Shown one piece after another: positions 1,490 through 27,676 of a DNA stretch of 28,075 bases. Source of the stretch: a virus. Taxonomy: Duplodnaviria > Heunggongvirae > Uroviricota > Caudoviricetes. Where the stretch lies: IMG/VR virus record IMGVR_UViG_2585427787_000005. One strand, 5' to 3'. Positions within the stretch are counted from its first letter, which is position 1. Every line of letters starts with the position of its first letter. The position numbers and the translations under genes were made by a program. The notes beneath the pieces are model-generated. The model was not told the DNA's origin. It made no database searches and worked only from the letters and a program-made list of their open reading frames with translations.

Positions 1490-1494
1490 GGGAT

Positions 1495-2193: not shown

Positions 2194-2522
2194 CAGTTCA
2201 CCACCTGTTCAAACTCTGCGCTGAACTCAACACGCAGCATACTGACCCGCGACGACCATTTTGCGCAGGTCACCTTTATCTGCCGCCACTCATAAGGCGG
2301 CGTCCACAGAAAGGATTTCCAGCCCCCGTGCTCTTCCAGAAACGACTCCAGTACCGTGGCCTCCTCACGGGGGACAGAAAGCGTCACGCTGTACGTTTTC
2401 AGGTTGGCATTCAGCCCGGCAGGCGCTCGCTGGGAATAGCCATCACCAAAGCGCACCTTTCTTACAGAAGGGACCGAAGCCACATCCATACCGGGTTTCA
2501 CTTTCCAGCGGAAGGTCTTCAT
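2193..2522 (-). CDS. M: Tail tip assembly protein M
   Basis: 109-aa ORF MKTFRWKVKPGMDVASVPSVRKVRFGDGYSQRAPAGL, recalled lambda gpM. ATGA overlap with the H stop. Confidence 0.93.
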   Translation of the reverse strand: MKTFRWKVKPGMDVASVPSVRKVRFGDGYSQRAPAGLNANLKTYSVTLSVPREEATVLESFLEEHGGWKSFLWTPPYEWRQIKVTCAKWSSRVSMLRVEFSAEFEQVVN

Positions 2523-9539: not shown

Positions 9540-9872
9540 TTAAACGATGCTGATTGCCGTTCCGGCAAACGCGGTCCGTTTTTTCGCCTCGTCGCTGGCA
9601 GCCTCCGGCCAGAGCACATCCTCATAACGGAACGTGCCGGACTTGTAGAACGTCAGCGTGGTGCTGGTCTGGTCAGCAGCAACAGCAAGAATGCCAACGG
9701 CAGCACCGTCGGTGGTGCCATCCCACGCAACCAGCTTACGGGTGGAGGTATCCGGCATCAACGGAGTCATTGCTGGCGTTTTCTTACTCAATCCGCCGGG
9801 CGCGGTTGCGGTATGAGCCGGGTCACTGTTGCCCAGCGGCTGGTAATGGGTAAAGGTTTCTTTGCTCGTCAT
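9540..9872 (-). CDS. D: Head decoration protein D
   Basis: 110 aa from [27 protein letters not shown], recalled lambda gpD. ATG at 9872. Confidence 0.93.
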
Positions 9873-9881
9873 AAACATCCC

Positions 9882-11181
9882 TTACACTGGTGTGTTCAGC
9901 AAATCGTTAACGGCATCAGATGCCGGGTTACCTGAAGCCAGCGGTGCCGGTGCCCCCTGCATCAGACGATCCAGCGCAGTGTCACTGCGCGCCTGTGCAC
10001 TCTGTGGTGCTGCGGCCAGAATGCGGCGGGCCGTTTCCACGGTCATACCGGGGGTTTCGGCCAGCACGCGTGCCTGTTCTTCGCGTCCGTGAGCCTCCTC
10101 ACAGTTGAGGATCCCCATAATGCGGCTGTTTTCTGCCGCAACCGCTGCGGTGATCTGCGCGTTCACGTCCGGCTGCGCCGCGCTGGCGTTTTCGCCCTCC
10201 GTCGCTGGCACCACGTCAGTAACGTCAGCCTGCGAAGCAGTGGCTGAAACAGTTGTTGATTGAGTCTCTTTGGTCATTCGCCCTCCTGAGAGACGGGATT
10301 TACGTGCATCCAGTGCATCACGCATGACGGTGATCGCATCGGTGCTGTTAACAAGTTCATCAGCCAGTCCGGCATCAATGACCTCCTGACCGCTGTACAC
10401 TGCAGCCTCGGTATCCAGCACAGCCTGCACGGACAGGCCGGTATATGCCGACACCTTCTGCGCAAACATCTGGCGGGTTGCGTCCATCCGGGACTGCAGT
10501 GTCTCCCGGACGTCATCCGGAAGATGGCTGTAGGGGTTGCCATCCACCTTATGGCTGCCGCTGTAAATCAGCGTGATTTCCACACCCTGTTTCTCCAGCG
10601 CAGCACCGTAATTACTGTGAGCCATCATGACGCCGATGGAGCCTGTCCGGGCGGTCTGCGTGACCAGACGCCGGGAGGCGGCACTGGCAAGCAACTGACC
10701 TGCACTGCAGTTCATGTCGTTGGCAAGCGCCCATACCGGTTTTATGTCACGCACACGGGCGATGATGTCAGCGCAGTCAAATGCCCCCGCCACCATCCCG
10801 CCGGGCGTGTCCATATCGAGCAGAATGCCGTCCACCATCGGATCGCTGGCAGCCTGTTGCAGACGGGCGATAATGCCGTTGTAACCGGTCATCCCCGAGT
10901 ACGGCTGCAGCGCCCGCGTCCGGCTGACCAGCGTGCCGGACACCGGCAGCACGGCGATGCCGTTCATGACCTGATAACTGCGGGCCTGTCGTGGTCCGTC
11001 ATCATCACCGGATAATGCCAGCGTCGCGAGTGCCTCCTGGGCAGTCAGGCTGTCGCCGGATACCGCATCCGTCAGGCGGCTGATCCCAAGCTGGCCTGCA
11101 AGCGCACAAAAGAAAACCCGCGCATAGGCGGGTTCAAGCATCAGCGGCTCATTAAAAGCCATGCTGGCAATATGCGGGAGA

Positions 11182-11201: not shown

Positions 11202-14882
<3,681 letters not shown>

Positions 14883-14908
<26 letters not shown>

Positions 14909-15428
14909 TCAGCAACCCCGGTATCAGTTCATCCAGCGCGGCTGCTTTGTTCATGGCTTTGATGATATCCCGTTTCAGGAAATCAACATGTCGGTTTTCC
15001 AGTTCCGGAAAACGCCGCTGCACCGACAGGGGGATCCCGTCGAGAATACTGGCAATTTCACCTGCGATCCGCGACAGCACGAAAGTACAGAATGCGGTTT
15101 CCACCACTTCAGCGGAGTCTCTGGCATTTTTCAGCTCCTGTGCGTCGGCCTGCGCACGCGTAAGTCGATGGCGTTCGTACTCAATAGTCCCTGGCTGGAG
15201 ATCTGTCTCGCTGGCCTGCCGCAGTTCTTCAACTTCCCGGCGCAGCTTTTCGTTCTCAATTTCAGCATCCCTTTCGGCATACCATCTTATAACGGCGGCA
15301 GAGTCATAAAGCACCTCATTACCCTTGCCACCGCCTCGCAGAACGGGCATTCCCTGTTCCTGCCAGTTCTGAATGGTACGGATACTCGCACCGAAAATGT
15401 CAGCCAGCTGCTTTTTGTTGACTTCCAT
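14883..15428 (-). CDS. Nu1: Terminase small subunit Nu1
   Basis: 181-aa ORF MEVNKKQLADIFGASIRTIQNWQEQGMPVLRGGGKGNEVLYDSAAVIRWYAERD, recalled lambda gpNu1 with its N-terminal winged-HTH region. Confidence 0.95.
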
Positions 15429-15604
15429 TGTTCATTCCACGGCCAAAAACAGAGAAAGGAAACGACAGAGGCCCAAAAGCTCGTTTTCAGCACCTGTCGT
15501 TTCCTTTCTTTTCAGGGGGTATTTTAAATAAAAACATTAAGTTACGACGAAGAAGAACGGAAATGCCTTAAACCGGAAAATTTTCATAAATAGCGAAAAC
15601 CCGC
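15429..15604 (-). promoter_or_regulatory. cosB region (terminase small-subunit binding sites between cosN and Nu1)
   Basis: Position between the cohesive-end sequence and the Nu1 start. Sequence colinear with the recalled lambda left end (GGGCGGCGACCTCGCGGGTTTTCGCTATTTATGAAAATTTTCCGGTTTAAGGCG... on the minus strand). Confidence 0.75.
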
Positions 15605-15616
15605 GAGGTCGCCGCC
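15605..15616 (-). other. cosN, the 12-nt cohesive-end sequence GGGCGGCGACCT of lambda
   Basis: Plus strand 15605..15616 is AGGTCGCCGCCC, whose reverse complement is GGGCGGCGACCT. It is flanked by the lambda right-end sequence ...GCGGGTCCTTTCCGGCGATCCGACAGGTTACG. Confidence 0.9.
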
Positions 15617-15816
15617 CCGTAACCTGTCGGATCGCCGGAAAGGACCCGCAAAATGATAATAATTATCATCTATATGTCACAACGTGCATCTACGCCATCA
15701 AACCACGTCAAATAATCAATTATGACGCAGGTATCGTATTAATTGATCTGCATCAACTTAACGTAAAAACAACTTCAGACAATACAAATCAGCGACACTG
15801 AATACGGGGCAACCTC

Positions 15817-16011
15817 ATGTCAACGAAGAACAAAACCCGCAGAACAACAACCCGCAACATCCGCTTTCCTAACCAAATGATTGAACAAATTAACATCGCT
15901 CTTGAGCAAAAAGGGTCTGGGAATTTCTCAGCCTGGGTCATTGAAGCCTGCCGTCGGAGACTAACGTCAGAAAAGAGAGCATATACATCAATCCAAAGTG
16001 ATGATGGATGA
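15817..16011 (+). CDS. Small hypothetical protein (64 aa) between cos and bor, with a possible ribbon-helix-helix-like DNA-binding fold
   Basis: ORF MSTKNKTRRTTTRNIRFPNQMIEQINIALEQKGSGNFSAWVIEACRRRL, ATG preceded by a purine-rich stretch. Basic N-terminus then a strand-helix-helix-like pattern. Fold assignment is inference. Confidence 0.6.
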   Translation: MSTKNKTRRTTTRNIRFPNQMIEQINIALEQKGSGNFSAWVIEACRRRLTSEKRAYTSIQSDDG

Positions 16012-16373
16012 ACATCCCGGTTTCTTCCACCATCGCACCGGAAAAGCGACTATGAGGGTAACCCTGCGTCTGTCAGCACAGTAAAACCCGGTGTGCATCG
16101 TTTTTGATTATTCCCGCACACTCACGCAGAAGGAATTCCCCGTCGGGCTACGGTCATGGTTAATGCGGGAATACGGCGACGATACAGCGCAGCTAAAAGG
16201 GTAATAGACGGATAGACCGGTTTATTTCATTCCACAGGATTCTGAGTGTCCCCAACTTCCTCCAATAGTCTGAGCGTACACCTATATAGTTTTAATTTTC
16301 ATCAATCCATTTAACTATCGTTTAATTGTTGTCACATAGGATTCTGCCGTTTTTAACAATGCAGGATAATAAG

Positions 16374-16667
16374 ATGAAAAAAATGTTGTTTTCTGCCGCT
16401 CTGGCAATGCTTATTACAGGATGTGCTCAACAGACGTTTACTGTTGGAAACAAACCGACAGCAGTAACACCAAAGGAAACCATCACCCATCACTTCTTCG
16501 TTTCGGGAATTGGACAGGAGAAAACTGTTGATGCAGCCAAAATTTGTGGCGGCGCAGAAAATGTTGTTAAAACAGAAACCCAGCAAACATTCGTAAATGG
16601 ATTGCTCGGTTTTATTACTTTAGGCATTTATACTCCGCTGGAAGCGCGTGTGTATTGCTCACAATAA
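16374..16667 (+). CDS. bor: Bor lipoprotein (serum-resistance-associated outer-membrane lipoprotein)
   Basis: 97 aa from MKKMLFSAALAMLITGCAQQTFTV with lipobox LITGC, recalled lambda Bor. ATG at 16374; the longer ORF-track start is an upstream extension. Convergent with Rz as in lambda. Confidence 0.92.
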   Translation: MKKMLFSAALAMLITGCAQQTFTVGNKPTAVTPKETITHHFFVSGIGQEKTVDAAKICGGAENVVKTETQQTFVNGLLGFITLGIYTPLEARVYCSQ

Positions 16668-16698
16668 TTGCATGAGTTGCCCATCGATATGGGCAGCT

Positions 16699-17160
16699 CT
16701 ATCTGCACTGCTCATTAATATACTTCTGGGTTCCTTCCAGTTGTTTTTGCATAGTGATCAGCCTCTCTCTGAGGGTGAAATAATCCTGTTCAGCGGTGTC
16801 TGCCAGTCGGGGGGAGGCTGCATTATCCACGCCGGAGGCGGTGGTGGCTTCACGCACTGACTGACAGACTGCTTTGATGTGCAACCGACGACGACCAGCG
16901 GCAACATCATCACGCAGAGCATCATTTTCAGCTTTCGCATCAGCTAACTCCTTCGTGTATTTTGCATCGAGCGCAGCAACATCACGCTGACGCATCTGCA
17001 TGTCAGTAATTGCCGCGTTCGCCAGCTTCAGTTCTTTGGCATTTTTGTCGCGCTGGGCTTTATAGGTAATGGCGTTATCACGGTAATGATTAACAGCCCA
17101 TGACAGGCAGACGATGATGCAGATAACCAGAGCGGAGATAATCGCGGTTACTCTGTTCAT
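16699..17160 (-). CDS. Rz: Inner-membrane spanin Rz
   Basis: 153 aa from [41 protein letters not shown], recalled lambda Rz. ATG at 17160 overlaps the R stop (ATGA). Confidence 0.92.
16758..16940 (-). CDS. Rz1: Outer-membrane lipoprotein spanin Rz1, embedded in the +1 frame of Rz
   Basis: 60-aa [27 protein letters not shown] with lipobox VVGC and a proline-rich tail [15 protein letters not shown], entirely inside Rz. Confidence 0.9.
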
Positions 17161-17654
17161 TGCTGACCCCACAAACAGATTTCACGCTCAATCTCACGAC
17201 GAGTCATGAGACCTTTCCATTGCTTACCGCCAGCATATGTCCAGCGACGTAACTGATCACATGCGCCTTTGATATCGCCCTGGTTTATTTTGCGAAGAAG
17301 CGTCGATGTTCTGAAATTGCCAGCACCCACGTTGTAAACGAATGAGTAAAGAGCGCCGCGCGTTGTTTCCGGTATATCGACTTCGATGTATGGGTTAATT
17401 TGTCTGGCGACAGTGGCAAGGTCTTTATTCAAGAGTGCTTTGCATTCTGCTTTGGTATACGTTTTACCGAGCATGATGTCTTTTCCTGTATGCCCGTGAC
17501 ATACGGTCCATACACCAACAATATCTTTGTATGGTATGTAGCTGACACCTTCCAGACCATCGTTACCACTTGGGCCAGTGATTAACACTGATGCTATAGC
17601 AATTGCTCCGCCACCAATAGCAGCAGCAACGGCTTTTCGTAATGATGGAGGCAT
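17157..17654 (-). CDS. R: SAR endolysin (phage-21-type, lysozyme-like), not the lambda R transglycosylase
   Basis: 165-aa [47 protein letters not shown]: a Gly/Ala-rich N-terminal signal-anchor-release helix followed by a lysozyme-like domain. Matches the recalled phage 21 R protein. Confidence 0.9.
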
Positions 17655-17869
17655 TATTCACCTCTCGCAGCCTTGCGCTTATCTTCTTTAATCTTGAAAT
17701 AAAGGTTTGTCAGGTACGTCAGCAGGCCAAATACCAGGCTACCCAGCACACCTATTGCTGCCCACTGTGAGGGCGTGACTTTATCGAGCAGCTGTAAAAA
17801 CCAGTAACCGGCACTACCTGCTGAGGTGCCATAGGCGACACCCGTTGTTAACTTATCCATGGATTTCAT
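17654..17869 (-). CDS. S: Pinholin S (phage-21-type, with MKSM dual-start motif)
   Basis: 71 aa from [74 protein letters not shown] at 17869, second Met at codon 4. Stop overlaps the R start. Confidence 0.9.
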
Positions 17870-18458
17870 AACCCCACCTCGCAGACAAAGCGGGTGTAAA
17901 TTGAGGGAATACAACGTATCGCAAAAAAGCAGAAACGTAACAGACTCGGAGTCAGTGAATAACTCAGGTATTGAGTTATCAGCTAATATCGAGACTCAAA
18001 AAATGGAAAAACCAGCTCGACGGCGGGTTTAAGCTGTGTGACGAAGTAACCACTCTTAACAGCATAACCAATTTTTTACGTACGTAAACCACTGAATGAT
18101 ATTTATGAGAATGCTACCGAGTGTTCAAAACACCACCACAAATACATAAGAAAACCTCAACAAATAACCAATAAATAATTTCCGGCGTTATTTTTAGTTA
18201 ATTTAAATTAAACCATCGAATTATAGATCCCCCCATAAATAACAGGCATTAATATAAATTAGCTAATAGGTTTATTTTTGTTCAAATAAGAGCCATAAAT
18301 AGGTTTCGATAGAAAAAGTTCAGATAAAAATAGAGATCTACTTCACAAATTAAATGAGAAACTAAAACTTACATCTTGAAATAATCACATTGATTAGATG
18401 AATATTTATCGCGCAGTGACATCATTTTTTAATAATAGTTCAAAAAAAAGGGCTCACG

Positions 18459-19541
18459 ATGAAAAAATTAACAGTGGCAATTTCTGCTGTAGCTGCATCA
18501 GTACTGATGGCGATGTCTGCTCAGGCAGCTGAAATTTATAATAAAGACAGTAACAAGCTGGATCTGTACGGGAAAGTTAATGCTAAGCACTACTTCTCCT
18601 CTAATGATGCAGATGATGGTGATACTACTTATGCCCGTCTTGGCTTCAAAGGTGAAACCCAAATCAACGATCAACTGACTGGTTTCGGTCAGTGGGAATA
18701 TGAATTCAAAGGCAACCGCGCTGAATCTCAAGGTTCCTCCAAAGATAAAACCCGTCTTGCCTTCGCTGGCCTGAAATTCGGTGACTACGGCTCCATCGAT
18801 TACGGCCGTAACTACGGTGTAGCATACGACATCGGTGCGTGGACTGACGTCCTGCCAGAATTCGGTGGTGACACTTGGACTCAAACAGATGTGTTCATGA
18901 CTGGTCGCACCACTGGTGTTGCAACTTATCGTAACAACGACTTCTTTGGTCTGGTTGATGGTCTGAACTTTGCTGCTCAGTATCAGGGTAAAAATGACCG
19001 CACTGACGTAACTGAAGCTAATGGTGATGGTTTCGGTTTCTCCACTACTTATGAGTATGAAGGATTCGGTGTAGGTGCAACCTATGCTAAATCTGATCGC
19101 ACTAATAATCAGGTTATCTACGGTAACAACGGTCTGAATGCTTCTGGTCAAAATGCTGAAGTATGGGCAGCTGGTCTGAAATATGATGCGAACAACATCT
19201 ATCTGGCCACCACCTATTCTGAAACCCAGAACATGACTGTTTTTGGTAATAACCATATTGCCAACAAAGCACAAAACTTCGAAGCTGTTGCACAATATCA
19301 GTTCGACTTCGGCCTGCGTCCATCCGTTGCTTACCTGCATTCTAAAGGAAAAGACTTGGGTGTTTGGGGTGATCAGGACCTGGTTGAATATGTTGATGTA
19401 GGTGCAACCTATTACTTCAACAAAAATATGTCCACTTTTGTTGACTACAAAATCAACCTGATTGATAAGAGCGATTTCACGAAAGCATCTGGCGTTGCTA
19501 CCGATGATATCGTTGCTGTAGGTATGGTTTACCAGTTCTAA
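18459..19541 (+). CDS. nmpC: Outer-membrane porin of the OmpC/NmpC/Lc family (lysogenic-conversion moron between Q and S)
   Basis: 360-aa ORF with signal peptide [23 protein letters not shown] followed by [16 protein letters not shown] and C-terminal ...VAVGMVYQF, the classic porin terminal Phe. Opposite strand to the late genes, in the position of DLP12 nmpC / PA-2 lc. Confidence 0.93.
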
Positions 19542-19552
19542 TTTGATTACTA

Positions 19553-19587
19553 AAAGATATGTTGTGGGAGGCTTTGCCTCCCCAACA
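19553..19587 (-). terminator. Candidate tR'-like terminator of the short late leader transcript
   Basis: Minus strand reads TGTTGGGGAGGC-aaa-GCCTCCCACAACA followed by TATCTTTT, about 150-180 nt downstream of the Q stop. The expected spacing is recalled from lambda biology. Confidence 0.4.
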
Positions 19588-19702
19588 TATAAGTGGCTCC
19601 CTCAAGCCACTTCCTTTAGAAGCACAACCTTGCTTCTAACTATACAAACCTTCTGTTATATATTACCCTTTATTTTTGGGGGCGTTTCAACGCCCCATTT
19701 TT
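19561..19702 (+). ncRNA. Candidate structured small RNA immediately 3' of the porin gene (four tandem hairpins; IpeX-like by position)
   Basis: Hairpins read from sequence: GGGAGGC-ttt-GCCTCCC (19566..19582), GTGGCT-ccctca-AGCCAC (19593..19610), GAAGCA-caacct-TGCTTC (19619..19636), GGGGCG-tttcaa-CGCCCC plus T tract (19679..19702). The IpeX assignment is from recalled DLP12 literature, not from alignment. Confidence 0.4.
19679..19702 (+). terminator. Rho-independent terminator downstream of the porin gene
   Basis: GC-rich 6-bp stem GGGGCG/CGCCCC with 6-nt loop, followed by ATTTTT. Confidence 0.65.
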
Positions 19703-19729
19703 AATAACTTTTAGTAAATAATTGGCGTA

Positions 19730-20113
19730 TTAATTAGAGTTATTAACAACGATATCCATCTCTAACCGGATATCTAATGCCATTAACATCCCTTCAATTA
19801 TGCCCTCAGCCTTCTGTAACCTTTTCCCGATATAACCATCAGAGCAGCAATGCTTACCTGCCAGTGACATGAATGTCATACCGACTACATAATAATCTAC
19901 TAATAAATCGTGCAAATCGCTGTTGTTCTTTTTCAGACGGGCCATGCACCCGCAAATGATCATCGCGTCATCGTCACAACATTGCGGGCGAGATTTTACT
20001 TTTGAAGGAATTAATCCCTTAAAACCGGCGGCAATGGACGACCAGGTCACATCTTCATGATTATTAGCCGCCCACGCTCCCCAACGCTCAAGAACCATCT
20101 GAATATCACGCAT
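19730..20113 (-). CDS. Q: Late-gene antiterminator Q (QuuD-like)
   Basis: 127 aa from [33 protein letters not shown] with Cys-rich putative zinc-binding segment [17 protein letters not shown] at 20113; the ORF-track call is longer. Confidence 0.85.
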
Positions 20114-20198
20114 CAACTTACTCCACAAAAATCAGACCAGAACGCCAATTACAAGCAAAAATCAATAAAACAGTATTAGTTGATTGTTATCTCTGACT

Positions 20199-20339
20199 TC
20201 ATACTCCTGCTCCTGTCAGGGTTTTGGCGTAATTCTTCAGTATTCGGTAATCGGTCAAAACATAACCGGGGAAACGATATAAGCGCAGACGCCCCCAGCG
20301 GTGGCGAAGGAGTTCTGCCATATATGACTCACACATCAT
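20199..20339 (-). CDS. ylcG: Small protein YlcG-like (46 aa), missing from the ORF track
   Basis: Hand translation of the minus strand gives [49 protein letters not shown] at 20339 overlaps the rusA stop. Position between rusA and Q as recalled for DLP12 ylcG. Confidence 0.7.
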
Positions 20340-20698
20340 TCATCCCCCAGTTCGGTGATGATCAGTTCCAGCCTCCCACCTTTGGTAACAGGCATCTTCA
20401 CAACGCGGTAATCAACGACCTGAGCATCATCCAGCCAGAAACCTGCTTTAGTGAGTGCGTCAAAAGCGGCTTTTTGCAGATTATCCAGGTCACGGCGACG
20501 GCGATCCGGCATGTGGCACTCAATGCGGATTTTCACAGGCATAGCCAGGCCGATATCCAGCATTGCGTTTTTAATGATTCGGGCGACGTTATCGCGGTAT
20601 GCCTGCCCCTCTGCACTGACGTGCGTGCGCCCGCGATTATGGCGGTAATAGCGATTATTGCTCGGAGGCCAGGGTAATGTGATACTGTAGGTATTCAC
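20336..20698 (-). CDS. rusA: Holliday-junction resolvase RusA
   Basis: 120-aa [49 protein letters not shown], recalled RusA sequence. Confidence 0.93.
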
Positions 20699-20985
20699 GC
20701 CTTAATAACCCCCTCTTTCAGCCAGATAACCTGTGTTCTCGCCATACCTTCCAGCGCGCATTCTTTTGCATATGCAGCATCGACAAAATGTGTGCGGCGG
20801 TCGATTTCGTCGTGGCAGGCAGAACATGCAATGGTGGCAATCAGGTCTGGCGGTTTGATACCGGTACCGCACAATCCAGCCAGCCGGATATGTGCCAGTA
20901 CAGACGTTTCAGAATTGCCATTACATACGCCAGGGATTCTTACCTGGCATTCCCGACCACGCGCTGCTTTTCTCAAATCAGCCAT
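20695..20985 (-). CDS. ybcO: YbcO-like nin-region protein (putative Cys-rich metal-binding nuclease)
   Basis: 96 aa from [45 protein letters not shown] at 20985 lies inside the end of ninE. Cys-rich motif CSACHDEID. Confidence 0.88.
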
Positions 20986-21148
20986 GATTCCTCCTTGCTG
21001 CCAGTCGCAACCATTTTTTATCAACCAGGCTAGCGGTATATCCGAGCAGAGTTGGTATTTCGGATGGCTTCAGCTCAGGCTTACGCTTACGACGATTTGA
21101 TACTCTGTAGATGTGTCCGTTCATGACACGAATAAGCGGTGTAGCCAT
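20978..21148 (-). CDS. ninE: NinE
   Basis: Hand translation gives [56 protein letters not shown] (56 aa). AGGAGG ribosome-binding site. TAATG overlap with the ybcN stop. Below the ORF-track size cutoff. Confidence 0.85.
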   Translation of the reverse strand: MATPLIRVMNGHIYRVSNRRKRKPELKPSEIPTLLGYTASLVDKKWLRLAARRNHG

Positions 21149-21603
21149 TACGCCTCCTGCTTGTCGCGGAGCAGCTGGAACTCGCAGCTCTGCGGAATAG
21201 TCAGGTGGCAGCCAATATTCACCGCCCAGGCTTCAACCTTACACAGGAAGATATACATCTCTCCGGTATCAAGATCGGAGGTATGGCGTAACGACTGGAT
21301 AGTGGTGATCTCACCGGTTACGACATCAACCAGGTCTTTGGTTTCATAACCGAGATATGTGTGTTTGAGAGCATCTTTTACCCAAGCTGGAGTGGCGAAC
21401 GTTTTACCCCTGCTGATGAGGTATTCACTGATTTCGCTGTACCACATGTGGCTGAGTGCATTCTGGGAAAGACTGCGTTTCTCACGCCACGGTTTAAGCA
21501 CCATGCGAAAGCATTTGCCTTCCTCCAGATAAGGCTGGATCTGCTGGCCGATAGCGGTGAAGTTACCACGATGCAATTTGATGCCGTCTTGTGGGAGGTT
21601 CAC
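21148..21603 (-). CDS. ybcN: YbcN-like nin-region protein
   Basis: 151-aa ORF (GTG start) [55 protein letters not shown] with GGAGGTG ribosome-binding site. Same order ybcN-ninE-ybcO-rusA-ylcG-Q as recalled for DLP12. Confidence 0.88.
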
Positions 21604-21636
21604 GCTTCACCTCCGCAGAGGTCAAACGCTGGATGC

Positions 21637-21721
21637 AAAAAATCGCAGGTGCATCTCTGCATCTGTGAAGGGAGAAGAGAGTTTGGATTGTATGTGCGCA
21701 TAAACGTCCCCGTTTAGCGCA
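21637..21721. repeat. 85-bp direct repeat, copy A (just upstream of ybcN)
   Basis: AAAAAATCGCAGGTGCATCTCTGCATCTGTGAAGGGAGAAGAGAGTTTGGATTGTATGTGCGCATAAACGTCCCCGTTTAGCGCA differs from copy B (23571..23655) at 5 of 85 positions. Ends in an imperfect 10-bp hairpin GCGCATAAACG-tcccc-CGTTTAGCGC. Confidence 0.9.
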
Positions 21722-21797
21722 GAAGTCACCGGAGTTGTTCAAGCTCCAATGGCATGATTATGGCTGGTTGATTATTGGAAATCAAATGTGCTGAAAA

Positions 21798-22307
21798 TTA
21801 GTCTGCCAAGTCTTCCTCAGTCGCAACTGGGTAATTCCAAATATCAAAAAAAGCTATAGCCTCCTGCCATTTGCTCCATAAGTTATCAAGTACTTGTGTA
21901 GGTTCCGTACTTTTAAAAACAGAATCAGCCGCATCACCGTTATGAACTTCCTCGTACAGTTCCATTATTAGCAGATTAACAAAGTACTGTTTCAACATTA
22001 ATGCCTGATTACCTTCTTTCTGCTGGCTATCCTGCTTGATGAGCTCCATCGCCCGTACTAGGCACCTGATGATATCCGCTGCATCATTAACGCTCCATTC
22101 AGATCCGCGCTTATCTTTAGCTGATGAATTGGCTCTCTCAGCGCAAGCCTTTAAAGACTCATAAAGGTAAACTCTATTTTGTAGCTGCAGCGCTTTTTTT
22201 GACGTGCACCAACTTGCAAGCGCCGACCCCGCTGCGGCTAATGTGCCAAACGCAGAAATGCCTGCTGCTATTGCACTTAAGTCGGCACTGTCAAAGTTCC
22301 ACATCAT
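21798..22307 (-). CDS. Hypothetical membrane-anchored protein (169 aa), function unknown
   Basis: ORF MMWNFDSADLSAIAAGISAFGTLAAAGSALASWCTSKK with one predicted N-terminal transmembrane helix followed by a charged, probably helical domain. No family recognised by eye. Confidence 0.7.
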   Translation of the reverse strand: MMWNFDSADLSAIAAGISAFGTLAAAGSALASWCTSKKALQLQNRVYLYESLKACAERANSSAKDKRGSEWSVNDAADIIRCLVRAMELIKQDSQQKEGNQALMLKQYFVNLLIMELYEEVHNGDAADSVFKSTEPTQVLDNLWSKWQEAIAFFDIWNYPVATEEDLAD

Positions 22308-22472
22308 CGTTACACCTTATATAAACACCCCTCAGTAATATCCAATAAGGTATGTGAACAATCAATATAATTTATATCCGTATCGGCACATAGCGATTTT
22401 AATGCTACTGATAATGGTATCTTTTAGATTATATCGTCCAGTTCCAGTACCCGTATTTTATGAAATGGACTC

Positions 22473-22512
22473 GCACATTACCAAAAAAAATGCCAGCACT
22501 TCCGTCATCGCA
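22473..22512 (-). terminator. Rho-independent terminator between the Bro-N-like gene and the 169-aa gene
   Basis: Minus strand reads GCCAGCA-ttctgcgatgacggaag-TGCTGGC followed by ATTTTTTTTGG. 7-bp stem at 22482..22488 and 22506..22512 with a long 17-nt loop, which weakens the call. Confidence 0.6.
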
Positions 22513-22542
22513 GAATGCTGGCAGTATTTCTAACTAGTGACT

Positions 22543-23151
22543 TTATTGCAACAGATTCTGACGGAAATATGGTAACACACGACTCCACTTATCATCCTGC
22601 CACGGTTGGAATTTTACATGCGCCGTTTCTCTGGCAAGGATTTCTCGCGCCCTGTTGAGTATCCGAGGATATTCTTGTTCGATTGAAGTGAATCTACCTG
22701 CTTCGCGATGCTCTGCGACCTGAAGAAGGGGCGTAACGTTCTGGCAGGCGGTTAACATCGTATCACTTGCTCGCCATAACCAGGCGAGTGTGCAAAGTTC
22801 GTTATCAGTGAATTGTTTTGTGATTGGGGATTGTTGAACTTCTCGATCGAGAATATCCAGAACCCAGCGGCGGAATTCTTTGGCCACAGGAGTACGAGCA
22901 AACATGGCGATCAAATGGGCTCCGCGAAGGCTAAATACTCGAGACTCCTGCATTCCACGAGGGGTGGTCACTTTGACCACCCTTGTCATCATATCTGTGA
23001 ATTCATCTGAGTGCCGAGAGTAAATGCGCTGAACTGCTTTATCGTCCGCATATTCCAGTGCTAAACCAACTTCAGTGGCAGTAAGCCAAATTCTGTTATT
23101 GTGGCAAATCGGGGTAAACGTCGTTTTGTGGAATGCTAATTGAGTAGTCAT
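22543..23151 (-). CDS. Bro-N-like domain protein (antirepressor / Roi-like family candidate)
   Basis: 202-aa ORF MTTQLAFHKTTFTPICHNNRIWLTATEVGLALEYADDKAVQRIYSRHSDEF...RVFSLRGAHLIAMFARTPVAKEFRRWVLDIL. Matches the recalled Bro-N consensus pattern (W-x-x-A-x-[DE]-V-x-x-x-L, then S-E-x-G-[LV]-Y-x-L-I, then A-x-x-F-x-x-W-V). Family assignment is by eye. Confidence 0.65.
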   Translation of the reverse strand: MTTQLAFHKTTFTPICHNNRIWLTATEVGLALEYADDKAVQRIYSRHSDEFTDMMTRVVKVTTPRGMQESRVFSLRGAHLIAMFARTPVAKEFRRWVLDILDREVQQSPITKQFTDNELCTLAWLWRASDTMLTACQNVTPLLQVAEHREAGRFTSIEQEYPRILNRAREILARETAHVKFQPWQDDKWSRVLPYFRQNLLQ

Positions 23152-23414
23152 AGTATCACCTCATCAGGTTAACCATCACCACCAACGACGCCAATCGACT
23201 GGTGGTGAACTGTGTAAGGTTGGCGTAACCGGCTACTCAAACCCGGCGCTTCCGAAGAAGCCCTCACACAGCCCACCATAATTTGGGCATAGCCGTGCTT
23301 AGCGCACAAAAAAACCGCTTAACGCGGTATGCGTTGAGTAGTATCCCGGGACGCCAATCCCGTGTGCCGATTTTGCGGCAACGCACAGAATATAGCGCCG
23401 GATAAATCATGTCG

Positions 23415-23504
23415 TCAACCCCAGTAAATGGACACCATGATGATCACAGCCATAGCTGCTACAACAGTTACAACTACCTCAGGCCAAAACATAACGATTT
23501 CCAT
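23415..23504 (-). CDS. Candidate small hydrophobic peptide (29 aa; alternative 25-aa start at 23492)
   Basis: Minus-strand ORF ATG GAA ATC GTT ATG TTT TGG... gives MEIVMFWPEVVVTVVAAMAVIIMVSIYWG, a single transmembrane-like helix. AAGGTGA lies just upstream. Immediately downstream of repeat copy B. Below the ORF-track cutoff. Confidence 0.3.
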   Translation of the reverse strand: MEIVMFWPEVVVTVVAAMAVIIMVSIYWG

Positions 23505-23570
23505 ATCACCTTTAGCCGCCAGACGAATAGAGACTCCCAATTCTGGCTGTCGAAGTAAAACACCGAATGT

Positions 23571-23655
23571 AAAAAATCGTAGGTGCATTTCTGCATCTGT
23601 GAATGGAGATGAGAGTTTGGATTGTGTGTGCGCATAAACGTCCCCGTTTAGCGCA
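23571..23655. repeat. 85-bp direct repeat, copy B
   Basis: AAAAAATCGTAGGTGCATTTCTGCATCTGTGAATGGAGATGAGAGTTTGGATTGTGTGTGCGCATAAACGTCCCCGTTTAGCGCA. See copy A. Confidence 0.9.
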
Positions 23656-23963
23656 ACCCCACCACCGGGTGTTCAGGCCGACAGTAACTATATTATTCCC
23701 TACTGATTTTTGAAAATCAAAGGTCTTTATACGTCACACGAGAGCAAATATTTCCGAAGAAGAAACCTTTCGCCTTGAAAGGATAAAGAGTTCATTTCAT
23801 AAATTGAAATATTCAATAAGAATATTGCAAAAAATGAAATTATTTACTAGCGAGTCTATCTAACTGATAATTATGAAGATTGTAAGCGGTAGCAATCACC
23901 CGCATACACATTGAACAGGATTTAATACAAAACGTCTTAAATTGTCCGTAAGGAATAGCACGA

Positions 23964-25466
23964 ATGACTCAAACTCCTCTATTACTTGCAATCATATTTT
24001 TATTGGTTGTTCTTGTTCTTTATATAGCTGCAATCAAACGCATCAAAAAAATACAATTAGAATTAAGTGATAGCAATCAAAAAAATGAAGAATACAAATC
24101 TCGCTTTGCAGATTATTTTAATGTAGAAGAAGAATGTAAGAAGCTTATTGAGAAAACAGAGCAAGAATGCTCCATAATAAAAGAAGAATCCCTAAAAGTA
24201 AAAGAAAATGCCAATAATGAACTAACAAACACCATTGAAAAAATGGATGGTATCAATAAACAAATCCAAGAGCTAAGAAGAACTTATAAAGAGAAGAAAG
24301 AAATATATGATAAACTAGTAAGGCAAATTTCTATTTATTCAGAAGATGTTGAGCTAGCCGAACTAGGATTTTACGAACCTCATTTTAATTTTGAAGATTC
24401 AGAGCAATTTAAAAACAAAATAAAATCCATCAGGGATGAACAGAAATTAATGCTGCGGGATAAAACCCACTCTGGCGCAGTATATTGTACAACCCAATGG
24501 ACTGTTGAAGGCTCTCGAGCAGAGGGTAAAAAAATGACAGACAGAAATATCAGGCTAACTACTAGAGCATTTAATAATGAATGTGATGCTGCAATTAGCA
24601 ATTGCACGTGGAAAAACATCACTAAAATGGAAGAACGCATCACAAAGGCATTTGAGGCCATAAATAAACTAAACGAGCAAAATCACATATATATAAACAC
24701 TAAATACCTCAATAAAAAACTTGAGGAATTGTGGCTTACCCATGAATATCGTGAGCAAAAACAGAAAGAAAAAGAAGAACAGGCAGAAATAAGGGCACAA
24801 ATGAGAGAGGAGGAGCGTGCACAACGAGAAATAGAAAAGGCCATGCAAGACGCAGAGGCAGAAGAGCGCCGTTATAAAAAAGCAATTGAAGCTGCAAGAA
24901 AGGAAATGGAAAAAGTTACTGGTGACATGAAGCAGCGCCTCGAAAATCGCATTGCCGAACTAGAACAGAGTTTGTCGCAGGCTGAATCAAAGCATCAAAG
25001 AGCATTATCCATGGCACAACAAACCAAACAAGGTCATGTTTATATTATTTCGAACATAGGTTCTTTTGGGGAGAATGTTTATAAAATAGGCATGACACGA
25101 CGTCTTGATCCGCAAGACCGTGTAAATGAGCTCGGTGATGCATCTGTTCCTTTTATTTTTGATGTACATGCCATGATTTATTCGGAGGACGCTCCATCAT
25201 TAGAAAAAAAACTACATGATGTCTTCGATAAAAAGAGAGTCAATCTTGTAAATCGTAGAAAAGAGTTTTTCTATGTTACTCTGGATGAGATCAAAGAAGC
25301 TGTTAAAAAACACTCTGATTCAGAAATTGAATTTATTGAGACAGCAGTCGCAAAAGACTTTAATGAGTCATTGGCTATTCGTAATCATGAAAATAAAAAA
25401 AGTGACAACAGCAACTCATCAATTATACCTGAGCGAAAAACCCCAGAGTTTGCAGATGCAATTTAA
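23964..25466 (+). CDS. AT-rich cargo protein (500 aa): N-terminal transmembrane anchor, coiled-coil segments, central DUF4041-like region and C-terminal GIY-YIG-like (T5orf172-type) putative nuclease domain
   Basis: ORF MTQTPLLLAIIFLLVVLVLYIAAIKRIKK (transmembrane helix). Lys/Glu-rich coiled coils (e.g. EYREQKQKEKEEQAEIRAQMREEERAQREIEKAM). C-terminal GHVYIISNIGSFGENVYKIGMTRRLDPQDRVNELGDASVPFIFDVHAMIYSEDAPSLEKKLH has GIY-YIG-like spacing (VYI...10 aa...YKIG, then Arg, then Glu). Composition is visibly AT-rich against the flanking phage DNA, and the gene is on the opposite strand. Domain names are from recall. Confidence 0.85.
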   Translation: MTQTPLLLAIIFLLVVLVLYIAAIKRIKKIQLELSDSNQKNEEYKSRFADYFNVEEECKKLIEKTEQECSIIKEESLKVKENANNELTNTIEKMDGINKQIQELRRTYKEKKEIYDKLVRQISIYSEDVELAELGFYEPHFNFEDSEQFKNKIKSIRDEQKLMLRDKTHSGAVYCTTQWTVEGSRAEGKKMTDRNIRLTTRAFNNECDAAISNCTWKNITKMEERITKAFEAINKLNEQNHIYINTKYLNKKLEELWLTHEYREQKQKEKEEQAEIRAQMREEERAQREIEKAMQDAEAEERRYKKAIEAARKEMEKVTGDMKQRLENRIAELEQSLSQAESKHQRALSMAQQTKQGHVYIISNIGSFGENVYKIGMTRRLDPQDRVNELGDASVPFIFDVHAMIYSEDAPSLEKKLHDVFDKKRVNLVNRRKEFFYVTLDEIKEAVKKHSDSEIEFIETAVAKDFNESLAIRNHENKKSDNSNSSIIPERKTPEFADAI

Positions 25467-25714
25467 TTAATTTGTAGTAGCAATAAAGCAGGCATCGTTG
25501 AGAATATTTTGTCAGCGATGCTTACTTCTCTAACAAAAACGGTGATTACCAACGAACTAACGGACTTCAGGTAATCATAAGACAAATGGAACGACTCTCC
25601 GGTGATTAGATCCCTGCAATAACAGTAATTTTCTACTAACTGAAAAATCTTTAACTGCCGCTCCTATTTCTAAGCTGACTGCTAGATTACATGGTGTGTT
25701 ACCGATGAAAACCG

Positions 25715-26017
25715 TCACAGCAAGTTTAAGTTCATATCTCCATACACTGCCAACACTCGTTTCATCGCGGCACTCTGGCGACACTCCTTGAAAATCAGAT
25801 TCGTGCTCACCTTTCCTTCCCGTTCTTCCCTGGTAGCGAACCGGTAATACACCGTTCGCCAGACCTTACCATCAACGACCAAGATTCCTGCCCGTGCCAT
25901 TTTAGCCGCAGCCTGATTTATACTGGTTACTGTTGCGCCTGTTACCGCAGCAACGTCCTGCGCACAGAAGCTCTTATGCGTCCCCAGGTAATGAATAATT
26001 GCCTCTTTGCCCGTCAT
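25715..26017 (-). CDS. ren: Ren (Rex-exclusion escape protein)
   Basis: 100-aa ORF MTGKEAIIHYLGTHKSFCAQDVAAVTGATVTSINQAAAKMARAGILVVDGKVWRTVYYRFATREEREGK, recalled lambda Ren with a divergent C-terminus. Overlaps the P stop. Confidence 0.88.
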   Translation of the reverse strand: MTGKEAIIHYLGTHKSFCAQDVAAVTGATVTSINQAAAKMARAGILVVDGKVWRTVYYRFATREEREGKVSTNLIFKECRQSAAMKRVLAVYGDMNLNLL

Positions 26018-26715
26018 ACAGTTGCTCCTTTCAGTCCGAACTTCGCTTTGATTTCTGCGATCTTCGCCAGAGCCTGTGCACGATTTAGAGGTCTACCGCC
26101 CATGACAGGAAGTTGTTTTACTGGTTCAGGTATCGCCTCACCACGGTTAATTCGCGCGGTCATACAAGTCAGTTCATCGGCAGCCTTGCGCCGTAATTCC
26201 GCATCAGTAAGCGCATTGGCCCGCATGTTCTGATACAGGTTGGTAACCAGCCAGTAGTGCGCGTTTGATTTCCACGGATAAGACTCTGCATCTGGATACA
26301 GGCCACGTTTCCGGCAATACTCGTAAACCATATCAACCAGCTCGCTGGCGTTTGGCAGCCCGGCGGTAACGGATGCTTCTTCCCGGCACCAGGCAACAAA
26401 CTGCCCGGGTGATGGCAGGAATGGTCGATTCTGCCGACGGGCTACGCGCATTCCTGCGTCAACCTGTTCCATCGTGGTGATCCCGTTTTCCCGGAAAGCC
26501 AGAACCCACTGGCGGCGGATTTCGTTCAGTTCGTTCTGGTCCCGGTTAGCCAGGCTCGCCGGGAAAGTTGCCAGTAACTGGCTGAACACACCATTGATGA
26601 TCTGCGCTACCTGTTGTACCTGCGGCTTTTCGTCGTACTGTTCCGGCATGTTGTTGGCGATCCGGCGCATCTGCTCACGGTCAAAGTTAACCATCTGTGC
26701 GGCGATGTTTTTCAT
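26014..26715 (-). CDS. P: Replication protein P (DnaB helicase loader)
   Basis: 233-aa ORF MKNIAAQMVNFDREQMRRIANNMPEQYDEKPQVQQVAQIINGVFSQL, the same length as lambda P. Confidence 0.93.
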   Translation of the reverse strand: MKNIAAQMVNFDREQMRRIANNMPEQYDEKPQVQQVAQIINGVFSQLLATFPASLANRDQNELNEIRRQWVLAFRENGITTMEQVDAGMRVARRQNRPFLPSPGQFVAWCREEASVTAGLPNASELVDMVYEYCRKRGLYPDAESYPWKSNAHYWLVTNLYQNMRANALTDAELRRKAADELTCMTARINRGEAIPEPVKQLPVMGGRPLNRAQALAKIAEIKAKFGLKGATV

Positions 26716-27641
26716 AAATCCACCCCGTAAATCCAGTCAGTGTTTGTCAGGTCGAGTTTTGATTTTCCGGCTATCACGCCAGCCTGTTGCTTGTTACGGT
26801 TGATTTCGAGTTGGGTCCACTTGTCGCGGAGTTTGGCCGGACTTAGCACGTTACCGGACCAGAAGTTGTCCTGGCATGCCCAGCGGAACAGCACGCACAT
26901 GTCGCGGTGGTTACGGCCGTCACGTTCACGCATCAGGCGGATATCGTTAGCCCACCCTGCAAAATTCGGTTTTCTGGCTGATGGCGCGATGGTCTTCACC
27001 ATGTCAAACATCCACTCTGCGGCGGTCAGGTCTTCTGCTGTCCCCCACCTGCTGCCGCTCTGAATTGCAGCATCTGGTTTCTCCACAGGAAGATCGTTTT
27101 CTGGTTGGTCAGAGGATTCGCCAGAATTCTCGGACGAAAAAGGTTTTATATTGTCTTTTGTTAGTTTGTCTTTTGTGTTTACCTGATTCGGGTAAGTGCC
27201 TTTACCTGATTTGGGTAAACTTTTCTTACCTGATTCAGGTAAATTTACCTCTTTCAGGTAAACTTTATTTTTCTTACCTGATTCGGGTAATGTTGACCAT
27301 TCACTGACCACATTATTAATGCCGATATTCCGCCCGCTCTGAATAAAAATCCCACGCTTTACCAGAACACTTTTTGCAGCAGAACACTTGTGCGGCAATA
27401 TCCCGGTCAACTCGGAAAGTTGCTCGTTGCTCACCCAATCCAGTTTTTTATTAAAGCCATATGTTTTGCGCATGACAGCCAGGAAGACCAGAAGCTGGTG
27501 CTGTGTTAATCCGGCCAGCATCACAGCTTCCAGCAACTCATTTGCAATGCGCGTATAACCATCATCGAGATCTGCCACGCGCGGCTCCTTTTGTGCCGCA
27601 TCCGGCACTGGAAAATTGAATATCTCAGCAGTGTTTGCCAT
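26712..27641 (-). CDS. O: Replication initiator O (divergent N-terminal DNA-binding half, lambda-like C-terminal P-interaction half)
   Basis: 309-aa ORF MANTAEIFNFPVPDAAQKEPRVADLDDGY... with C-terminal ...EWMFDMVKTIAPSARKPNFAGWANDIRLMRERDGRNHRDMCVLFRWACQDNFWSGNVLSPAKLRDKWTQLEINRNKQQAG matching recalled lambda O. GGGAGGAA ribosome-binding site. Contains the ori iterons. Confidence 0.92.
   Translation of the reverse strand: MANTAEIFNFPVPDAAQKEPRVADLDDGYTRIANELLEAVMLAGLTQHQLLVFLAVMRKTYGFNKKLDWVSNEQLSELTGILPHKCSAAKSVLVKRGIFIQSGRNIGINNVVSEWSTLPESGKKNKVYLKEVNLPESGKKSLPKSGKGTYPNQVNTKDKLTKDNIKPFSSENSGESSDQPENDLPVEKPDAAIQSGSRWGTAEDLTAAEWMFDMVKTIAPSARKPNFAGWANDIRLMRERDGRNHRDMCVLFRWACQDNFWSGNVLSPAKLRDKWTQLEINRNKQQAGVIAGKSKLDLTNTDWIYGVDL
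27120..27279. repeat. Lambdoid replication origin inside O: five 17-bp palindromic iterons plus adjacent AT-rich region
   Basis: Iterons TTACCTGATTCGGGTAA (27168..27184), TTACCTGATTTGGGTAA (27191..27207), TTACCTGATTCAGGTAA (27215..27231), TTACCTCTTTCAGGTAA (27234..27250), TTACCTGATTCGGGTAA (27263..27279). AT-rich tract 27120..27167 with repeated TGTCTTTTGT. Confidence 0.88.
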
Positions 27642-27676
27642 AATTCCTCCCGCAATGAGTGTGTTACGATTTGCAC

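Follow-up and report, generated by a model that had tools for sequence, protein, structure and literature searches.

The virus record IMGVR_UViG_2585427787_000005 (Caudoviricetes), whose whole stretch of 28,075 nucleotides we call the window, carries a lambda-like Escherichia coli prophage in which about 4 kb of accessory DNA with a low GC content lies between the gene ren and the gene pair ylcH-ybcN (positions 21,604 to 25,714). We consider it highly probable that this interval is a mosaic accessory region, placed between the O-P-ren genes and an intact nin-Q operon of the phage 82 type and composed of three independently inherited cassettes. These hold, respectively, a gene matching the anti-phage nuclease SNIPE (PD-lambda-1), an antirepressor gene (ant) with its putative regulatory RNAs, and an open reading frame (ORF) of 169 codons, here named orf169. 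A model reading the letters alone (the original prediction) had proposed that the interval is an exchangeable cargo slot. The alignment check on relatives was run, and it supports the cargo-hotspot reading, as the flanks are constant and the contents differ.

Variability of the slot was surveyed across 5,426 complete E. coli genomes, to which all genome counts refer. The flank on the ybcN side was present in 2,953/5,426 genomes and the flank on the ren side in 2,887/5,426. Far fewer carried the present content: orf169 was attached to ybcN in 163 genomes and SNIPE to ren in 101, the SNIPE gene occurred anywhere in 131, the block of ant and orf169 (threshold of at least 80%) in 112, and the whole 5.3-kb arrangement in 84, with an identity of at least 99.8%. 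Fifteen loci with the same flanks were sampled and showed twelve different contents, and the length of the slot ranged from about 0.8 to about 5.2 kb in the ten loci that were measured. Contents of the compared loci, designated by our own handles, were as follows (lengths of products in amino acids, aa).

L008, the DLP12 prophage of E. coli K-12: emrE-ylcJ-ybcK-ybcL-ybcM
L005: emrE-ylcJ-ybcK, a truncated ant and BstA
L006: two hypothetical genes, ant, and genes of 58 aa and 210 aa, without SNIPE and orf169
L007, O157:H7: two small genes alone
L009: an inverse-autotransporter pseudogene and an alpha/beta hydrolase
L010: small genes and an IS3 element
L011: emrE-ybcK
L003: an HD-domain gene and SNIPE
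L019, phage PhiR30_1: an acyltransferase and a lipoprotein
L020, phage PhiR5_1: three small genes, a different ant, and orf169
L021: a VCH_CASS14-like gene, ant and a HEPN pair

Most of the alternative occupants had no match in PADLOC. Defence genes had been expected to accumulate at this position, and besides SNIPE in the window we found that L005 has a homologue of BstA and L021 a gene with a HEPN domain. We also weighed whether the region may be a fixed, conserved part of a phage lineage, its low GC content reflecting gene-specific composition. Such a reading would fit the near invariance (at least 99.8%) of the arrangement in its 84 genomes and in phage PhiR26_1, and we give it next to no credence, given that about 2,900 genomes share the flanks without this content, that twelve alternative contents exist, and that the homology breakpoints cluster at the joints.

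The same comparison bears on whether the products of SNIPE, the Bro-N-type ant gene and orf169 constitute one multi-gene defence system working only as a unit. The three genes are adjacent and co-occur in 84 complete genomes at an identity of at least 99.8%. This reading is nonetheless extremely improbable, considering that SNIPE stands alone beside ylcH in L003, that L006 and L021 have the antirepressor cassette without SNIPE and orf169, and that L014 to L017 have orf169 without SNIPE or antirepressor. Moreover, the genome counts are unequal (131 for SNIPE, 112 for ant with orf169, 84 for all), SNIPE lies on the opposite strand, the genes are separated by terminators, and SNIPE cloned alone defends fully according to its published description (PMC13190303). 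The suggestion that the three proteins might act together is thus not borne out; they occur apart in relatives and are inherited independently.

The flanks of the slot are defined by the following genes.

26712-27641, minus strand: O
26014-26715, minus strand: P
25715-26017, minus strand: ren, with which the conserved O-P-ren replication module ends; the corresponding RefSeq gene is 'protein ren' (WP_000145913.1)
21600-21701, minus strand: ylcH (orf33 of phage 82), 33 aa, which opens the nin-Q operon (RefSeq WP_001309322.1; orf33 in X92588)
21148-21603, minus strand: ybcN, NinB-like, the right flank ('DNA base-flipping protein YbcN' in RefSeq)
19730-20128, minus strand: quuD, the antiterminator gene (Q), last of ninE-ybcO-rusA-ylcG-quuD

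In the orientation of the phage, ren is the left flank. The ybcN gene, whose match to Pfam NinB (8.5e-5, 22.8 bits) is slightly below the cut-off of 23.8 bits, is the first large gene of a conserved ybcN-ninE-ybcO-rusA-ylcG-quuD block, and the same gene names appear in the RefSeq annotation of a chromosome that is 99.8% identical. Phage 82 and DLP12 have this same block, from ylcH to Q, as their nin region, namely orf33, orf151, orf56, orf96, rus, orf45 and Q (X92588). All genes of the block that had been said to resume after the module were therefore recovered; the claim that the module replaces the nin region fails, since an intact nin block of the phage-82/DLP12 type follows the cargo. By its gene content, the cargo is best described as an insertion upstream of an intact, non-lambda nin block of the phage 82 type.

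The proposed shift in base composition was evident: the GC content is 0.351 in SNIPE and 0.403 in the whole slot, compared with 0.509 in O-P-ren, 0.487 in ybcN-quuD (0.49-0.51 in the flanks) and 0.515 in the window. Homology breakpoints, i.e., the positions at which similarity to the window stops or starts in the surveyed genomes, fall at about 21761-21798 on the right in most genomes having the ybcN-side flank. On the left they fall in most genomes at about 25735-25758, in the last 7-14 codons of ren, and because homology mostly starts there, these codons are part of the variable joint.

The K-12 prophage DLP12 offers the clearest parallel. It has the same flanks (ren on one side, ylcH-ybcN-ninE-ybcO-rusA-ylcG-quuD on the other) around a slot of about 4.1 kb, and it occupies the same attachment site, argU tRNA-Arg/intD, at which relatives with the same SNIPE gene are integrated. 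The content differs entirely: the genes in the slot encode an efflux pump, a recombinase, a regulator and a kinase-inhibitor-like protein, none of them with a match in PADLOC. Variability of the slot is thus visible already within E. coli K-12. The concept is that of the hotspots of PMC9122126 and Vassallo et al. 2022, in which a fixed position between conserved phage genes houses many alternative genes, some of them anti-phage. Those hotspots belong to another phage family and another position; in the slot described here, which repeated joints divide into parts, morons unrelated to defence and a regulatory cassette are found as well. Some of the defence systems of Vassallo et al. 2022 lie in lambdoid prophages.

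The nearest deposited phage is PhiR26_1 (PV340555.1, 48,207 bp), which is 99.8% identical to the window over positions 21000-26300 and 100% identical over SNIPE, ant, orf169, both copies of the repeat D1 and the isrK/C4 region (D1 and these RNAs are described below); no RNA genes are annotated in the deposited record. Homology to PhiR26_1 spans window positions 12995-27676 with a gap at about 16029-16319 and ends inside gene O. As judged from this alignment, the prophage appears to be essentially PhiR26_1, a member of the DLP12/phage-82 family; because the homology is gapped and ends at 27676, the window represents a close relative of PhiR26_1 and not the same genome.

The cassettes meet at repeated sequences, which we named D1, and at elements directly upstream of them, as listed here.

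21618-21721: direct repeat D1, copy 1, covering the ylcH leader and most of ylcH
23552-23655: direct repeat D1, copy 2, covering the 5' half of a ylcH-like gene and its leader
21722-21797, minus strand: 'type A' element, a promoter-like site and an inverted repeat before ylcH; the right-hand joint of the slot
23656-23760, minus strand: 'type B' element, a diverged homologue of type A, which joins the SNIPE cassette to D1 copy 2

Duplicated boundary repeats of 85 bp had been predicted. The duplication is real, and its length is 104 nt, with copies 89% identical; the next-longest direct repeat in the region has 25 nt (76%). The repeats do not border the 4 kb as had been thought: they bracket just the 1.93-kb half with the antirepressor and orf169, and SNIPE lies outside. 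D1 copy 1 is present in L001-L010, L012 and L013 at 94-100% identity and in L011 at about 80%. D1 was found in 48 phage records, among them phage 82, HK639, HK225 and phi80, and its exact 24-mer core, searched among species representatives, was found in Escherichia alone, plus one metagenome bin labelled Oxalobacter. All promoter-like sites reported in this work are consensus matches, and a scan of the region gave 15 of them, with 10.2 expected by chance. Type A contains the promoter-like site TTGATT-17-CATAAT (21785-21757) and type B the site TTGATT-17-AATAAT (23720-23692). D1 and the type A element together correspond to the stretch before orf33 of phage 82, for which a putative -35, a putative -10 and a 'possible regulator-binding site' are annotated.

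In L003, the type B element is joined directly to ylcH-ybcN, and the alignment gives the order SNIPE-side upstream element, single D1, ylcH-ybcN. Such a structure would result from the absence of the 1.93-kb block, or from its loss by recombination between the copies of D1. D1 copy 2 is 100% identical in L006, where it precedes the antirepressor cassette with no SNIPE and is itself preceded by a further copy of the upstream element. The order within the gap is accordingly ren, sub-slot 1 (SNIPE), the second D1 copy, the antirepressor cassette, sub-slot 2 (orf169), D1 copy 1 and ylcH. In L021, the VCH_CASS14 integron-cassette-like gene sits in the ren-proximal sub-slot.

These comparisons suggest that D1 and the upstream elements most likely serve as homologous-recombination joints for the exchange of cassettes. 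In the model we propose, three independently inherited cassettes would be joined by a conserved element of about 100-180 bp, consisting of D1 and a promoter/operator-like upstream part. D1 and the upstream elements may even be dedicated exchange joints, splitting the gap between ren and ninB into two sub-slots beside the antirepressor cassette. Exchange at shared sequences is the classical picture of lambdoid module boundaries, not a new mechanism. A different explanation would be that the segment between the D1 copies is a transposable or site-specific insertion, with D1 as either its attachment site or a duplication of its target. Direct repeats around a discrete block that is missing in L003 do give this appearance; the explanation is very unlikely, as D1 (104 nt, 89% identity) is far too long and too diverged for a target duplication, the 1.93-kb block has no transposase or integrase inside, and D1, which supplies the leader and coding sequence of ylcH, has a function in the phage and is single-copy in most relatives. 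In addition, D1 copy 2 precedes the antirepressor cassette in L006 and L021 with different genes after it, which fits homologous exchange.

The first cassette, proximal to ren, consists of the nuclease gene and its signals. For hairpins here and below, significance was evaluated with 200 shuffles per candidate.

23964-25466, plus strand: SNIPE/PD-lambda-1, 500 aa, assigned by PADLOC, Pfam and named residues
23843-23871, plus strand: promoter-like site upstream of SNIPE, TTTACT-17-GATAAT, 9/12, consensus match
25486-25527, plus strand: hairpin directly 3' of SNIPE, 12-bp stem, -22.9 kcal/mol (z = -3.6, 0/200 shuffles as good)

An AT-rich, nuclease-like gene opposite to ren had been predicted, and it is confirmed on the plus strand. 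Residues 1-485 of its product match the PADLOC profile PDLC03976 (PD-Lambda-1, 491 positions) at 1.9e-198, and a second profile, PDLC03977, is matched at 7e-195. Pfam assigns DUF4041 (PF13250, 1.2e-19) to residues 198-252, and T5orf172 (6.9e-17) and MUG113 (7e-19), i.e., a GIY-YIG-type nuclease domain, to residues 357-449. An N-terminal transmembrane helix spans residues 6-24 (LLLAIIFLLVVLVLYIAAI, mean Kyte-Doolittle value 3.37). The label in RefSeq is 'SNIPE associated domain-containing protein', and in the PhiR26_1 record 'PD-lambda-1'. PD-lambda-1, which comes from the screen of Vassallo et al. 2022, was renamed SNIPE by Saxton et al. (Nature 2026; PMC13190303). Of the residues named in that article, 9/9 are present here (L253, E264, K305, E223, T319, W257, I308, N250 and E414), including the catalytic E414. 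Length, architecture (N-terminal helix, DUF4041, GIY-YIG/T5orf172) and the nine named residues are the same, and at this level of comparison no difference from the published SNIPE was found. We conclude from these similarities that the opposite-strand gene can be identified as SNIPE/PD-lambda-1, an anti-phage nuclease already characterised.

PMC13190303 describes SNIPE as an inner-membrane GIY-YIG nuclease of 500 residues, with which ManYZ and the tape measure protein associate and which cuts phage DNA during injection. The same article reports experiments in which SNIPE blocked lambda and other siphoviruses and left the chromosome, plasmid transformation and the induction of a resident lambda prophage unharmed; the gene cloned alone conferred full defence, SNIPE was seen at the membrane when its native promoter drove expression, and defence remained robust with a SNIPE-GFP fusion. 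By the same mechanism, SNIPE of the window would meet ManYZ and the incoming tape measure protein at the inner membrane, and its GIY-YIG domain would cut the DNA of superinfecting siphoviruses at injection. From the point of view of the lysogen, SNIPE would shield both the cell and its prophage against lambda-like competitors that are heteroimmune.

The 203 bp upstream of SNIPE are 100% conserved along with the gene in L003, which lacks the neighbouring cassette, and in this locus homology to the SNIPE cassette stops at about 25528, directly after the 3' hairpin. That hairpin is the likely terminator of the SNIPE transcript, and it would face the transcription incoming from pR and ren. Transcription of SNIPE would hence start in the AT-rich DNA preceding the gene, run opposite to the phage operon and end at the hairpin.

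Insertion sequences were observed in some copies of the gene: IS5 splits SNIPE in NZ_CM144251.1/NZ_OZ392478.1 (hits H2, H3 and H31), and IS1 splits it in NZ_CP137705.1 (H64) and NZ_AP038814.1 (H69). These splits hint at recurrent inactivation of SNIPE, and possibly at a cost of carriage. The window itself encodes a tape measure protein of 853 aa (2519-5080, minus strand) with TMP_2 and lambda-type Tape_meas_lam_C domains. Because the carrier has a lambda-type tape measure protein, SNIPE may mainly exclude its prophage's own relatives.

The second cassette contains the antirepressor gene. Its elements, in the order of transcription and followed by two small frames, are listed below.

23389-23418, minus strand: promoter-like site, TTGACG-18-TATATT, 10/12, the top score of the scan
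23308-23395, minus strand: isrK-type small RNA with a terminator of its own, equivalent to the a1/b1 hairpins that C4 targets; found with Rfam
23198-23283, minus strand: C4-type antisense RNA (Rfam RF01695, 74.8 bits, gathering threshold 45, full length 1-87)
23169-23309, minus strand: short ORF overlapping C4; 46 aa from a TTG, 36 aa from the first ATG
22543-23151, minus strand: antirepressor (Ant), 202 aa, with Bro-N and P22AR C-terminal domains
22483-22523, minus strand: intrinsic terminator of the antirepressor cassette, CUGCCAGCAUUCUGCGAUGACGGAAGUGCUGGCA then U8 (z = -3.25, 0/200 shuffles as good)
23415-23588, minus strand: ORF of 57 aa with a hydrophobic C-terminus, a doubtful gene (PHROG 4612, 4.5e-43, function unknown)
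23474-23635, minus strand: YlcH-like ORF of 53 aa that starts inside D1 copy 2, annotated as a coding sequence in PhiR26_1

Both the Bro-N-like gene and the terminator after it had been recognised correctly in the original prediction; the two RNA genes, C4 and isrK, were absent from its list of features. Ant matches Pfam P22_AR_C (1.7e-17) and Bro-N (4.4e-10), and PHROG 245, 'anti-repressor Ant' (2.8e-56), plus twelve further antirepressor PHROGs. It is labelled 'P22AR C-terminal domain-containing protein' in RefSeq and 'Rha protein' in the PhiR26_1 record. The isrK match (Rfam RF01394, 58.7 bits, gathering threshold 50) covers 23308-23380, and the -10 hexamer of the best promoter-like site ends 9 nt before its 5' end (23380), a placement suited to start the isrK transcript. 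In L021, both isrK hairpins are 100% conserved, and the terminator stem still pairs despite changes on both sides.

C4 folds into the canonical structure (-42.9 kcal/mol). Reading by eye, its segment CGCCAA is complementary to UUGGCG of the second isrK hairpin and also to a b2-like UUGGCG just downstream, at about 23182-23187; RNAduplex, applied to full-length C4 and its targets, gave uninformative whole-length duplexes. The C4 RNAs of the window and of L021 differ in the loop of the second hairpin (GGGUUUGA--GUAGCC vs GGAUUUCGUUUUGACC) and are otherwise identical. By analogy, this loop difference may be a specificity determinant like the one that separates c4 of P1 from that of P7. The short ORF that overlaps C4 is a candidate equivalent of the coupling ORF orf45/icd, and its frame in L021 extends past the start codon of ant.

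The order of elements is that of the isrK-orf45-anrP cassette of Gifsy-1: promoter, IsrK hairpins and terminator, C4-type RNA (STnc1160 in Gifsy-1), short ORF, antirepressor and terminator. The Gifsy-1 cassette lies downstream of antQ, whereas the present one precedes the nin-Q operon. A search for an IsrJ-like RNA after ant gave none, even at E <= 1. Similar isrK/C4 sequences were found in 223 phage records, mostly of Stx phages. Ant has Bro-N and P22AR_C domains and was likened to AnrP of Gifsy-1 and to Ant of P1 by gene order. The immI operon of P1 and P7 (c4-icd-ant) is, we presume, laid out in the same way as the present cassette.

In Gifsy-1, the short IsrK activates translation of the read-through mRNA, orf45 translation is coupled to that of AnrP, AnrP promotes prophage induction, and Gifsy antirepressors bind and inactivate lysogenic repressors (PMC4825925). 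By this analogy the Bro-N gene would be the end of an RNA-controlled, immI-like antirepressor cassette, and would belong to phage regulation, not to defence cargo. The cassette would read, in order, promoter, IsrK/a1b1 hairpins and terminator, C4-type RNA, short coupling ORF, Ant and strong terminator. By homology with immI and the Gifsy-1 cassette, the RNAs would keep Ant untranslated in the lysogen; relief of this block would allow Ant to inactivate a repressor and so promote induction.

Alternatively, the antirepressor cassette could be a weapon between prophages, Ant inactivating the repressors of other phages, resident or incoming, and would in this case be cargo like SNIPE. The cassette varies as well, being carried by just a part of the prophages with these flanks; Stx phages widely have it in their nin region; and the binding and inactivation of lysogenic repressors by Gifsy antirepressors (PMC4825925) would suit such a role. 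We regard this as rather unlikely, considering that the homologous cassette of Gifsy-1 induces its own prophage and that a target repressor for Ant is not indicated by these data.

The analogy with Gifsy-1 may extend to the operon downstream. The ylcH promoter-like site (21757-21785) predicts a transcription start about 1.62 kb upstream of the quuD ATG (20128). The start site of the Gifsy-1 antQ operon, which is activated by the antirepressor AnrP, is about 1.6 kb upstream of antQ (PMC4825925), and the nin-Q operon of the window may, by comparison, have its own antirepressor-sensitive promoter. Gifsy-1 was not among the matches of the phage searches with the D1 or the isrK/C4 sequences.

The small hydrophobic ORF that had been noted next to the nuclease gene exists as the 57-aa frame (Kyte-Doolittle maximum 2.55) and is probably not a conserved gene. 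We rejected it as such: in L021, which is 86% identical, its ATG is ATA and a TAG stands at the position of codon 36. The overlapping 53-aa frame has lost 3 nt in L021 and still runs through 47 codons there without a stop; by inspection of the sequence, its first 24 residues parallel those of YlcH.

The third cassette consists of orf169 and the spacer in front of it.

21798-22307, minus strand: orf169, an all-helical protein with a weakly hydrophobic N-terminal helix
22455-22484, minus strand: promoter-like site before orf169, TTGGTA-18-TAAAAT, 9/12, consensus match

The ORF of 169 codons is present as predicted; its description as membrane-anchored proved marginal, with a 19-residue Kyte-Doolittle maximum of 1.59 vs 3.37 for the SNIPE helix. 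The spacer of 235 bp (GC 0.366) accompanies orf169 in PhiR5_1, whose antirepressor differs. No match was found in Pfam, or in PADLOC at E <= 0.01. The protein belongs to PHROG 1779, which has no assigned function; a word-indexed homologue search gave 14 clusters at 90% identity, none of them named, and a profile search among 1.84 billion representatives gave 34 proteins (at 50% identity) of similar size and without known domains. A profile search of the PDB gave nothing at or below E = 0.87, and the accessions of the family are absent from the DefensePredictor supplements.

The genomic context of orf169 is more regular. In every context examined, which included a contig labelled Scandinavium, other metagenomic prophages and phage PhiR5_1, orf169 is the last gene before NinB/YbcN/DUF1367 of a lambdoid early-right operon, with an antirepressor or SNIPE sometimes near and sometimes not, and in these contexts the family is confined to lambdoid prophages of Enterobacteriaceae. 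Other genes take this position in relatives. In L005, a BstA homologue (PADLOC 3.6e-121; 9653-10582, minus strand) lies exactly there, between the ant remnant and ylcH, and in L021 a HEPN-domain gene and its 133-aa partner (1411-2207, minus strand) lie directly upstream of ylcH-ybcN. BstA is a prophage abortive-infection protein, with which orf169 shares position alone: there is no sequence similarity, orf169 does not match the BstA profile of PADLOC, and it is about half the size and without a recognisable DNA-binding domain.

Because of its position before ninB/ybcN, its own promoter-like site and the BstA and HEPN genes found there in relatives, orf169 is a candidate for exclusion or defence. 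That it is a new single-gene superinfection-exclusion or anti-phage factor expressed in the lysogen is a tentative proposal, to which we give well below even chances. With its own promoter-like site, a lysogen-expressed exclusion or defence factor would be our best, weakly supported guess. A plus-strand hydrophobic ORF of 59 aa in the spacer between ant and orf169 (22354-22533), considered as a small toxin, was rejected, with stops and a frameshift in L004 and in L020 (PhiR5_1).

Several observations weigh against parts of this picture. In many cases the slot is occupied by genes without a defence role (EmrE, a recombinase, YbcL/YbcM, an acyltransferase, a hydrolase, an inverse autotransporter). 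For D1, the proposed role in recombination comes from comparative structure, and the putative promoters at the locus are consensus matches, from a scan giving the 15 sites vs 10.2 by chance mentioned above. The hairpin 3' of SNIPE is without a clean U-tract. Regarding the antirepressor cassette, the c4-a1b1 match (RF03163, 23343-23395), which overlaps isrK, has 39.6 bits, under its gathering threshold of 46.7; downstream of C4, just the b2-like UUGGCG and no clear a2-like partner was recognised; and the short ORF ends 18 nt short of the ant ATG, unlike its overlapping Gifsy-1 counterpart (ATGA). Gifsy-1 did not appear in a tblastn search of phages. Finally, the function proposed for orf169 has no support from homology, fold or literature.

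Elsewhere, the window has lambda-type head, tail and lysis genes, and two further places deserve mention. At 27676, within the 5' part of O, homology to PhiR26_1 and to the chromosomes L001, L004 and L006 breaks off, and the O ORF has 309 aa here (first in-frame start at 27641) vs 339 aa in these four. Position 27676 is another mosaic joint, probably at the part of O that determines origin specificity. Between Q and the lysis genes lies a porin gene of the nmpC/ompC/ompD type (18459-19541, plus strand), with a stretch of 30% GC just upstream of it; this locus (window positions 18000-19541) is a second accessory (moron) slot of the same prophage, and its copy in K-12 is interrupted by IS5.

In summary, much of the region is already known: SNIPE is published and its mechanism characterised, and PhiR26_1 is in GenBank with 'PD-lambda-1'. 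Because SNIPE is characterised and the region already deposited and annotated, the finding opens no new question. What we add are the unannotated C4 and IsrK RNAs, the subdivision of the slot by repeated joints, and the positional equivalence of orf169 with the BstA and HEPN genes. Public annotations omit C4 and IsrK; once they are added, the 'Bro/Rha' gene becomes recognisable as an immI-like induction switch. The orf169 family is a modest, testable candidate for a new exclusion factor and the only remaining lead in the region. SNIPE has its native home in a subdivided cargo slot that prophages of the DLP12/phage-82 type widely share. In K-12 the same slot is occupied by emrE, so it could be mined systematically for new defence genes.

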